40,477 bases of DNA, taken from Escherichia phage P694. Shown here in pieces: positions 16,170-18,036 of the stretch. The notes below the pieces were generated by a model, which was not told the origin of the DNA, searched no databases, and saw only the letters and a program-made list of their open reading frames with translations. The stretch's first letter is position 1; every line of letters starts with the position of its first letter. The stretch lies in sequence record NC_028863.1. One strand, given 5' to 3'. Both the position numbers and the translations under genes were made by a program.

Positions 16170-17882
16170 ATGGATATGGAAGAACAACAAGAGAGTATAT
16201 TCCTCTATCATTTACCTTGTGAGAACTGTGGGTCGTCAGATGGTAATGGCATGTATTCTGATGGACACCAGTATTGTTTTGTGTGTCAGAACCATGTACG
16301 TGGAACCGAGGAAACTCGTGAGACCGTGGCAAAGACTCGCAGAAGCTCATACAACACTGGAGGTGACAAAATGTCTAACCTGTTAAACTTTGGGGATTCA
16401 GACGGTCGCTACACGAACCTAAAAGCTCGTGGCCTTATGGAAGCTATCTGCCGTAAGTATGGCTATTGGGTAGCGAAGGTCAACGGAGAGATGCTTCAGG
16501 TTGCGAACTACTATGACGTTGAGGGAAACCTTGTGGGTCAGAAGGTGCGCGACAAGAACAAAGAGTTCTCCGCTAAGGGGAAACTCAAAGCTGACCTATT
16601 GTTTGGTAAGCAGTTATGGAATGGTGGCAAGAAGATTGTGGTGACTGAGGGTGAGATTGATTGTCTGACCGTAGCGCAACTTCAAGAAGGGAAGTATCCC
16701 GTTGTGAGTCTCCCTATGGGTGCTCAAGCCGCAAAGAAAACATGTGCTGCAAACTATGAATACTTCGACCAGTTCGACGAGATTATCCTGATGTTCGACA
16801 TGGATGAGCCGGGTCGCAAGGCCATCGAAGAGTGTGCTCCTGTCCTACCTAGCGGGAAAGTCCGAGTCGCTGTACTGCCTCTTAAGGATGCCAATGAGTG
16901 TTTACTCAATGGACAAGCCAAAGCAGTAACCGACCAGATTTGGAATGCTCAACCTTGGGTGCCTGATGGTGTAGTCTCCGCTGTGTCTCTTAAAGACCGA
17001 GTGCGTGAAGCTATGGTCAAAGAGGAAACAACAGGTCTGCTCTTTACGGGTCAACCGAAGCTCAACGATATGACACTTGGTGCTCGTGGTGGTGAAGTCA
17101 TCATGGTAACTTCCGGTTCCGGTATGGGTAAGTCAACATTCGTTCGCCAACAGATGCTCATGTGGGGCAAGGGTGGGGCAAAGGTAGGTTTGGCGATGCT
17201 CGAAGAAGCCGTTGAGGAAACCGTTCAGGACTTAATGGGCTTGAACAACCATGTACGTCTGCGTCAAGACAAAGAACTCAAGATGAAAATCTTAGAGGAC
17301 GGACGTTTCGATGAATGGTATGATGTACTGTTCAACACAGATATGTTCCACCTGTATGATTCCTTTGCGGAGTCACAGGAAGACCGTCTGTTTGCAAAGC
17401 TGGCCTATATGGTCGATGGCTTGGATTGTAACGTCATCCTGCTTGACCATATCTCTATTGTGGTCTCCGGGATGGAAGATAACTCTGATGAGCGTAAGAC
17501 GATTGACCGATTAATGACCAAGCTGAAAGCCTTTGCGAAGACTAAAGGTGTGGTCGTTGTGGTAATATGTCACCTCAAGAATCCTGAGAAGGGGAAAGCA
17601 CATGAAGAAGGTCGTCCTGTTAGTATTACTGACCTGCGTGGCTCTGGCGCACTACGTCAACTTAGCGATACCATCATTGCCTTGGAGCGTAACCAGCAAG
17701 GTGACTATCCTAATCTTGTCCAGTTGCGTGTTCTCAAGTGTCGTTTTACTGGCGATACTGGCGTGGCTGGACACATGGCCTACAACAAAGAAACCGGATG
17801 GCTTGAACCGACTGCATCACCTGAAGATGAAGGAGAAGGAGATAGCGGCTGGGAACCAGAAGACGATGGTCAAGACTTTTAA
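16170..17882 (+). CDS. 4: DNA primase/helicase (gp4A)
   Basis: 570 aa from ATG 16170 (GGAG RBS); zinc-binding motif CENCGSSDG...CFVC; Walker A GSGMGKST; strong T7 gp4 similarity. Confidence 0.95.
16371..17882 (+). CDS. 4: gp4B helicase form from an internal in-frame start
   Basis: Internal ATG 16371 preceded by GGAGGTG, at the position equivalent to T7 4B Met64. Confidence 0.6.
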
Positions 17883-18036
17883 ACCTGAGCGTGTACAGCA
17901 TGGAGACTTACTGACTCCTGAACAGGCGTACATATACGGGCATTGGGAGTCAAAGAATAAATCAATACAACTCACTAATGGGACAGACACTCTGTTCCCA
18001 CTTATCAATCCGCTTAAGGAGAATCACAATGTTTAA
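17602..18036 (+). CDS. Overlapping out-of-frame ORF at the 3' end of gene 4 (gene 4.2-like position); predicted membrane protein
   Basis: 144-codon ORF starting 280 nt before the gene 4 stop and ending at the 4.3 start; AAGGGGA RBS-like upstream. Confidence 0.35.
17962..17987 (+). promoter_or_regulatory. Phage-promoter-like sequence (phi4.3-like)
   Basis: TCAATACAACTCACTAATGGGACAGA. Confidence 0.5.

Follow-up and report, generated by a model that had tools for sequence, protein, structure and literature searches.

Two reading frames nested in the primase/helicase gene of Escherichia phage P694: a gene 4.2 homologue and a probable chance frame

Overprinted genes are found in several phages, among them λ Rz/Rz1, T7 18.5/18.7 and φX174 E; Rz1 is a short +1 open reading frame (ORF) lying wholly inside the longer gene Rz, and its product is a membrane-targeted lipoprotein with a proven role in lysis. 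In phage T7, two further genes are annotated in the region of the primase/helicase gene (gene 4), namely gene 4.1 (11635..11757) and gene 4.2 (12988..13326). Here we examine the corresponding region of Escherichia phage P694 (sequence record NC_028863.1, 40,477 nucleotides (nt), the whole of which is referred to as the window), in which two ORFs in the +1 frame of gene 4A occupy the positions of T7 genes 4.1 and 4.2 and are referred to as ORF-A and ORF-B. As judged from its sequence, ORF-B is a member of the T7 gp4.2 family, so that gene 4.2 of this phage belongs to an already known and annotated family, whilst ORF-A is most likely a chance ORF.

The status of T7 gene 4.2 has been unclear. It clusters with the low-essentiality genes in a knockout map (PMC11482910), and viable T7 deletions remove its 3' end (PMC8923235). 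Cloned T7 gp4.2 inhibits growth of E. coli in minimal medium, an inhibition that is relieved by stringent-like RNA polymerase mutants, and no partner was found among RelA, SpoT and RpoZ (PMC13483052, 2026).

The elements of the P694 locus that bear directly on the two nested frames are the following.

16170..17882, + strand: gene 4A, primase/helicase, 570 residues, host of both nested ORFs; equal in length to the 4a annotated in Escherichia phage 285P
16240..16386, + strand: ORF-A, 48 residues, +1 frame of gene 4A, at the T7 gene 4.1 position; judged a chance ORF
17589..17594, + strand: Shine-Dalgarno-like AAGGGG, spaced 7 nt from the ORF-B ATG, made by Lys-Gly codons of a conserved helicase motif
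17602..18036, + strand: ORF-B, gene 4.2 homologue, 144 residues, +1 frame of gene 4A, its ATG formed by the His-Glu codons CAT GAA
17605..17775, + strand: predicted helical hairpin of ORF-B, helices at residues 2-25 and 30-58 (Kyte-Doolittle, AlphaFold2, hydrophobicity null)
17883..18036, + strand: non-overlapping C-terminal tail of ORF-B, 51 residues, 285P-type; AlphaFold2 predicted local distance difference test (pLDDT) below 50 for most of it

An earlier reading of the sequence alone, without database searches, had placed ORF-B correctly at 17602..18036, with 144 residues; the translation ends in ENHNV*. It had also counted correctly that 280 nt separate the start from the final base of gene 4, which compares with 277 nt for T7 4.2 (12988 against 13265). 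Its statement that the frame ends at the gene 4.3 ATG is nearly right, since the TAA (18034..18036) lies 5 nt inside gene 4.3 (ATG at 18029), within codons 2-3 of that gene (ATGTTTAA). The correspondence to T7 4.2 that it had proposed from position is borne out by BLASTP, Pfam and PHROG: ORF-B is 49% identical to T7 gp4.2 (NP_041978) over 98 residues (E = 6e-24), scores 53.3 bits against Pfam PF17576 (DUF5480; cut-off 25, E = 2.8e-14) and matches phrog_5140 at E = 3.1e-47. Its identity to gp4.2 of 285P, where the gene is already annotated, is 79%, and the same annotation is found on the counterparts in 285P, BA14, Yepe2, T3 and K1F. The homologue search returned six clusters, all of them gp4.2 or hypothetical proteins of T7-like phages, and none of the six contained a free-standing, non-overlapping homologue. 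Neither PADLOC nor Pfam beyond DUF5480 gave anything meaningful. The start codon occupies the same column of the codon alignment as in T7, where CAT GAA falls within the motif KGKAHEEGR.

The Pfam and PHROG similarity over the overlap is partly forced by the conservation of gp4 itself, and because this applies to much of the similarity of ORF-B, signals independent of it were sought. A total of 61 related loci were collected, aligned by codon and clustered at 90% nucleotide identity, and 12 enterobacterial lineage representatives sharing less than 90% nucleotide identity were picked without reference to the ORF. Earlier permutation tests had used lineages selected for having the ORF, which is circular, and were redone on these 12 unbiased representatives. 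In the permutation, whole alignment columns are swapped among columns with the same invariant amino acid, so that the phylogeny is preserved.

The rival explanation against which these tests have to be read is that neither ORF is translated and both merely follow from codon usage in gene 4, with T-rich third positions in the 3' part of the gene keeping the frame open and its reading hydrophobic, the invariant KGKAHEE supplying both ATG and Shine-Dalgarno sequence, and phylogenetic inertia doing the rest. Against it, the 4.2 overlap is the only nearly stop-free +1 window of gene 4: it is open in 11 of the 12 enterobacterial lineages and contains 2 stops summed over all of them, compared with 7-77 in the other 70-codon windows. 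The column permutation gives 2 stops observed against 16.1±5.1 expected (0 of 1000 permutations). Mean hydrophobicity of the +1 product is about 1.0 in the overlap and about 0 elsewhere in gene 4 across the 12 lineages; in the permutation test the overlap has 0.95 against an expected 0.66±0.11 (P = 0.005), and third-position T is 0.43 against 0.38 (P = 0.01). The same columns in distant Pseudomonas-phage-type lineages show no such effect, with 44 stops against 36 expected. At-risk dicodons, of which there are 9-11 per lineage, never form a stop inside the overlap and do so in 23-45% of cases outside it. Wobble positions are close to saturation between lineages and still the frame is open, a further point against that explanation.

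The His that forms the ATG is encoded by CAT in every lineage that keeps the ORF, and T7 uses CAC 13 times and CAT twice over the whole gene. Nine of the 12 representatives encode the second residue before that His, a Gly, as GGG and so have AAGGGG 7 nt from the ATG, although only a minority of the Gly codons in these genes are GGG (8 of 55 in the window). In six further genomes (one Elunavirus, four Kayfunavirus and one Teetrevirus) the ORF is present in all, mostly unannotated; the five that were scanned against Pfam all pass the DUF5480 threshold. The full-length ORF is annotated in none of the six, one of which calls its last 38 codons only. Synonymous shuffling of the window's gene 4 yields a +1 ORF of at least 93 codons in 1.5% of cases and leaves the ORF-B span open in about 7%. 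By this comparative evidence ORF-B is well beyond chance.

The tails of ORF-B homologues, which lie outside gene 4, offer a second line of evidence. They extend 22-154 nt past the gene 4 stop and in most lineages end at the first bases of the φ4.3 promoter or at the 4.3 start, thus filling the available space, which argues against a by-product. Recurring tail peptide families occur in different genera and are listed here by their motifs.

CxCGxxxCDG..YH: Cys-rich, zinc-knuckle-like; T3-type, some T7-type and other lineages
C[DE]GYCCMxNP: Cys-rich, zinc-knuckle-like
TTQCxCPWDxPCVCP: 285P and locus L025
D.WEELNE.[ED]: an acidic helix
DIADYKDF
DYEKFRWRVPF: T7 and Kayfunavirus ASO2B

Conserved tail residues are encoded by different synonymous codons. 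T7 and ASO2B, for example, share DYEK[FY][RK]WRVPF*, with three synonymous changes, a Phe-to-Tyr change and a three-base Arg-to-Lys change between them. Codon-position differences in hand-picked tail motifs had given only weak P values (0.05-0.13) and were biased by selection by eye; they were replaced by an all-against-all comparison of 40 unique tails, of which the 723 pairs without DNA similarity were kept, in three same-frame comparisons with a shuffle control. In the 4.2 frame, 71 of the 723 pairs reach a protein local score of at least 30 and 32 a score of at least 40. At the lower threshold the other two same-frame comparisons yield 0 and 6 pairs, and at the higher one none; with shuffled peptides the counts at the two thresholds are 4.4 and 0.3. 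That tails without DNA similarity are alike as peptides in the 4.2 frame only speaks against an untranslated frame, and this frame-specific similarity is the best evidence that the 4.2 frame is translated, despite a bias of the comparison towards that frame. Support for gene 4.2 as a translated gene is thus provided by stop avoidance, hydrophobicity and frame-specific tail conservation.

The earlier description of the ORF-B product as strongly hydrophobic holds for residues 1-58 and fails for residues 59-144, which are hydrophilic. The first 58 residues contain two peaks in the Kyte-Doolittle 19-residue window (2.28 and 2.67). AlphaFold2, run on a shallow alignment, predicts helices at 2-25 and 30-58 (pLDDT about 80-85) and a weaker helix at 67-83, with the remainder at low confidence. 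All ten ORF-keeping lineages examined have two hydrophobic peaks, an N-terminus charged +1 or +2, and a net positive charge in the segment that follows helix 2. The product is probably a dispensable, two-helix inner-membrane protein encoded by overprinting.

Taken together, we consider it likely that ORF-B is a copy of gene 4.2, encoding an accessory, host-interacting hairpin membrane protein, and that ORF-A is not a gene. Gene 4.2 would overprint the final 280 nt of gene 4 in the +1 frame and continue into the space before gene 4.3. Because there is no promoter-like site inside gene 4, translation would have to start internally on long class II transcripts, with ribosomes entering at the ATG made from His-Glu codons and the Lys-Gly codons just upstream supplying the Shine-Dalgarno sequence AAGGGG. 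The product may insert in the inner membrane as a hairpin, with both its Lys-rich N-terminus and the basic stretch that follows helix 2 on the cytoplasmic side, where the lineage-specific tail could act as an exchangeable interaction module. Gene 4.2 would then be a dispensable accessory gene for host interaction. The copy in the window no longer has the Cys-rich tail motif found in its closest relative, and it runs through the φ4.3 promoter. A more detailed proposal, to which we give roughly even chances, is that gene 4.2 is genuine and was born by overprinting in the enterobacterial T7-like branch, that the hairpin is selected only for openness and hydrophobicity, that tail cassettes are exchanged between genera, and that the protein serves as a membrane-anchored adaptor to variable host factors, possibly related to defence, the window allele having lost the Cys module.

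A number of observations weigh against ORF-B being such a gene. Synonymous-rate suppression in gene 4, which had been suggested as a check, is not significant over either ORF: in the 4.2 overlap, synonymous-site conservation among the unbiased lineages is 0.536 against an amino-acid-matched null of 0.504±0.027 (P = 0.12), although pairwise synonymous identity over the overlap is mildly raised (0.56-0.62, against a gene mean of 0.527). Amino-acid identity of the +1 product in the overlap is likewise not above the permutation null (P ~0.3). Between the window and L012, gp4.2 differs at 34 of 82 residues (41%) where gp4 differs at 4 (5%), and the hairpin would therefore be constrained in openness and composition and not in sequence. 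T-rich wobble positions alone would remove +1 stops and make the +1 product hydrophobic; shuffles within the region, which keep its composition, leave the frame open in 2-39% of cases per lineage. Reading the acidic, GAN-rich gp4 tail in the +1 frame automatically produces a basic segment behind helix 2. Repeated loss of the ORF is also seen: the ATG is ACG in L035, L013 and L019/L048, there are four stops in the 4.2 frame in L010/L011 and two in L026, and in the L021 group the ATG and the Shine-Dalgarno sequence are retained with a 54-residue two-helix ORF that is truncated just after helix 2. The frame is closed in all distant Pseudomonas-phage-type lineages sampled. Within Berlinvirus alone the tails vary in their extension from 49 to 154 nt, and the tail comparison favours the 4.2 frame in that this frame is open by construction and the other frames contain stops. 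No detection of gp4.2 or gp4.1 by ribosome profiling, mass spectrometry or labelled product, in T7 or its relatives, was found in the searchable literature.

Several of these points are what the by-product explanation would lead one to expect: the losses in close relatives, the lack of significant synonymous constraint and of +1 amino-acid conservation, the family matches that gp4 conservation partly forces, and a span that in single genomes stays open in 2-19% of whole-gene shuffles as well as in the within-region shuffles just described. It is the preferred reading for ORF-A. For ORF-B it has to account for the stop deficit that survives the phylogeny-preserving permutation and for the tails, and we regard it as unlikely for the two ORFs together. 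The repeated loss fits a dispensable accessory gene, in agreement with the T7 knockout and deletion data (PMC11482910, PMC8923235).

Two of the loci without the ORF deserve description. L010 (IMGVR_UViG_642973558) carries an HNH homing-endonuclease-like ORF between gene 4 and gene 4.3 (Pfam HNH_3, 47 bits, with a helix-turn-helix region), and L011 has a remnant of this ORF at the same place. Gene 4.2 is destroyed in both, as the divergent 3' end of their gene 4 has four +1 stops.

The +1 frame might also be translated without yielding a free-standing membrane protein, whether by a late +1 frameshift from gene 4, an internal start that produces the tail only, or termination-reinitiation that couples the frame to gene 4.3. 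In favour of this group of readings, the ORF-B stop falls 5 nt into gene 4.3 both in the window and in the majority of Berlinvirus insert types, ASO2B has the 4.2 stop/4.3 start overlap TAATG, and seven of nine Berlinvirus insert types retain the frame through the promoter to the same stop. The annotation of Erwinia phage Stepyanka, which has only the last 38 codons, from an internal ATG, stands on the same side, as does the fact that peptide-level conservation is clearest in the tails. The upstream boundary of the frame points the other way: the stop-free stretch begins just 24-84 nt upstream of the conserved ATG, the window directly upstream of it holds the most +1 stops of the gene, and within the open stretch no ATG precedes the conserved one with its Shine-Dalgarno sequence. 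The hydrophobicity of the first 58 codons exceeds the null, and the L021 group keeps only the hairpin part. Coupling is not general, because in T7/T3-type phages the 4.2 stop is separated by the promoter and ~25 nt from gene 4.3, which has a strong Shine-Dalgarno sequence of its own. For the frameshift version no slippery site was seen, though none was searched for. This family of explanations is, in our estimate, decidedly improbable. The 4.2 ORF, which is not annotated in ASO2B (L129, Kayfunavirus; 2215-2225), ends at locus position 2223, the point at which the annotated 4.3 coding sequence (CDS) starts. No promoter intervenes, an arrangement that would permit translational coupling.

ORF-A shares its position with T7 4.1 but not its sequence. 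The coordinates, length and use of an alternative frame had been given correctly (16240..16386, 48 residues). The frame is the +1 frame of gene 4A, the translation ends CLTC*, and the start lies 70 nt after the 4A ATG (16240 against 16170), an offset and frame shared with T7 gene 4.1 (NP_041976; 11635 against 11565). T7 gp4.1 differs in having 40 residues and in showing no BLASTP alignment to ORF-A even at E ≤ 100. ORF-A has no match to phrog_20075 at E ≤ 0.1, whereas T7 gp4.1 itself matches at 1.8e-33. ORF-A has no Shine-Dalgarno sequence in place of the GGGAG of T7 (upstream sequence tgtgggtcgtcagATG, against gggagtagtgATG in T7), and the ORF-A stop starts 13 nt past the ATG of the internal gene 4B, whereas the T7 4.1 stop is at +1 and overlaps the 4B ATG as ATGA.

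The ORF-A ATG consists of the GAT-G of conserved zinc-finger residues Cys-Gly-Ser-Ser-Asp-Gly (codons ...TCA GAT GGT...), and because these Ser-Asp-Gly codons make it, it is found in almost every lineage, including the distant Pseudomonas-phage-type ones. The ATGA overlap seen in T7 similarly arises because the Met precedes Thr, Ser or Asn. Synonymous identity of gene 4 in the ORF-A region is below the gene mean. Compared with L008, with which the window shares 98% gp4 identity, ORF-A differs at 22 of 44 residues where gp4 differs at 7. When gene 4 is shuffled synonymously, the span remains open, ATG included, in 28% of cases, and 60% of the shuffles contain a +1 ATG-initiated ORF of at least 48 codons somewhere in the gene; the column permutation says little here, as only 7 of 49 columns are conserved. 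ORF-A would thus be a by-product of conserved zinc-finger codons and a stretch in which +1 stops are rare. That it is instead a functional counterpart of T7 4.1, for example a short +1 upstream ORF whose translation tunes initiation at 4B, is highly improbable. In its favour, the ATG keeps its 70-nt offset in most lineages, the 4B ATG is overlapped by the +1 stop as ATGA in T7, in several T3-like lineages and in L059, L025 and L021, and +1 stops are sparser in the first 190 nt than in most of gene 4. The first two features, however, are forced by conserved Asp-Gly and by Met followed by Thr, Ser or Asn, the frame ends at points between -44 and +112 nt from the 4B ATG depending on the lineage, and the similarity, Shine-Dalgarno and shuffle results just given all run counter to it.

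With ORF-B taken as a gene 4.2 copy, the allele in the window can be compared with its relatives. In DNA, the gene 4 region is ~96% identical to that of 285P, an Escherichia phage of Berlinvirus (Studiervirinae), and of phages like it. The window tail is without a 60-nt in-frame segment that in 285P encodes the Cys-rich motif TTQCSCPWDAPCVC. Because the 4 nt that carry the 285P stop are absent, ORF-B reads through the promoter-like site at 17962..17985. The resulting tail ending is common to the seven of nine Berlinvirus intergenic insert types mentioned above.

As the first 2.5 kb of the window match the tail-fibre, holin, Rz and terminase region of relatives, the 40,477-base window appears to represent a circularly permuted T7-like (Berlinvirus) genome. 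Gene 4 lies ~5.2 kb further along in it than in 285P. The genes and sites around the nested frames, in order, are these.

Upstream of the 28-residue ORF: lysozyme 3.5, first in the gene order around gene 4
16073-16159, + strand: 28-residue hydrophobic ORF, Shine-Dalgarno AAGGAG at 16059..16064
16371..17882, + strand: gene 4B, in-frame internal start, helicase-only form, Shine-Dalgarno GGAGGT at 16359..16364
17962..17985, + strand: phage-RNA-polymerase promoter-like site, φ4.3 counterpart, inside the ORF-B tail
18029..18241, + strand: gene 4.3, 70 residues, Pfam DUF5471 (74.8 bits), Shine-Dalgarno AAGGAG at 18016..18021
18255..18557: gene 4.5, TA_inhibitor match
18646..19044: counterpart of 285P gene 4.7, preceded by a promoter-like site

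The gene 4A product is 99.5% identical to the primase/helicase of Salmonella phage SPLA4 (tblastn), and some 1100 INPHARED records have gp4 at 60-80% identity. The window 4B Met aligns with that of T7, where 4B is annotated. The TAG stop of the 28-residue ORF is part of the gene 4A Shine-Dalgarno sequence, and 285P has an 87-nt CDS annotated as 'unknown' at the same place. The annotation of the Kayfunavirus loci L131 and L132 places a tRNA-like or pseudo-tRNA feature shortly before gene 4A (locus positions 396-474). Gene 4 also contains a 67-residue ATG-initiated +1 ORF (17311-17514, + strand), longer than ORF-A, which is not conserved, since the alignment there is densest in +1 stops among relatives. 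In L061/L121 (IMGVR_UViG_651703085) gene 4 appears to be interrupted: the longest open frame has 380 codons and the C-terminal part of the helicase restarts in another frame, which could reflect a frameshift, an insertion or a sequencing error.

The 24-mer of the site at 17962-17985 repeats at 18614-18637 and 25869-25892. Its 15-nt core, AACTCACTAATGGGA, with at most three mismatches, has 13 matches on the + strand against 1.0 expected, and the sites fall into two sub-types, ending in ...CTAATGGGA and ...CTATTGGGA. None of the 13 core matches lies within gene 4, leaving no φ4c equivalent there. Neither a σ70-type promoter nor an intrinsic terminator was found in 17400-18300. In T7, φ4.3 is annotated between genes 4.2 and 4.3.

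As to annotation, the name gp4.2 (DUF5480) is appropriate for ORF-B, and ORF-A should not be called; the understanding of the primase/helicase itself is unchanged. For T7 gene 4.2, stop avoidance, hydrophobicity and tail conservation together provide a cheap argument for real translation. They also single out the tails as the part likeliest to contact host factors, which fits the stringent-response-linked toxicity of T7 gp4.2 (PMC13483052).

The predicted topology of ORF-B invites comparison with other small phage membrane proteins. Class II holins, such as T7 gp17.5, are small proteins that cross the membrane with two helices, keep both termini in the cytoplasm and carry a charged segment at the C-terminus. 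ORF-B as predicted fits this description, but its charge distribution is largely a by-product of the +1 reading. A role as a holin was considered and set aside: ORF-B matches DUF5480 and phrog_5140 and no holin family, and it lies among class II DNA-metabolism genes and not in the lysis cassette. The annotated class II holin of relatives lies in DNA matching window positions 1-2500. Rz1 in Rz offers an analogy of a different kind, since in both cases a +1 ORF in a longer gene would encode a membrane-targeted product and would probably have arisen de novo by overprinting. Gene 4.2 differs in extending past its host gene, in sitting among DNA-metabolism genes, in being dispensable and in that its product is predicted.

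Compared with 285P gp4.2 (140 residues), the window copy is without the Cys-rich segment and the stop before the promoter, and runs through φ4.3 into the start of gene 4.3. Its 144 residues also compare with 112 in T7, its tail is unrelated to that of T7 (DRILDDFPDDYEKFRWRVPF), and it has no counterpart of φ4c, which in T7 lies inside gene 4, 317 nt upstream of 4.2. Features in common with T7 gene 4.2 are the +1 reading of the final ~280 nt of gene 4, an ATG made from His-Glu codons and the two hydrophobic helices (PMC4925675).

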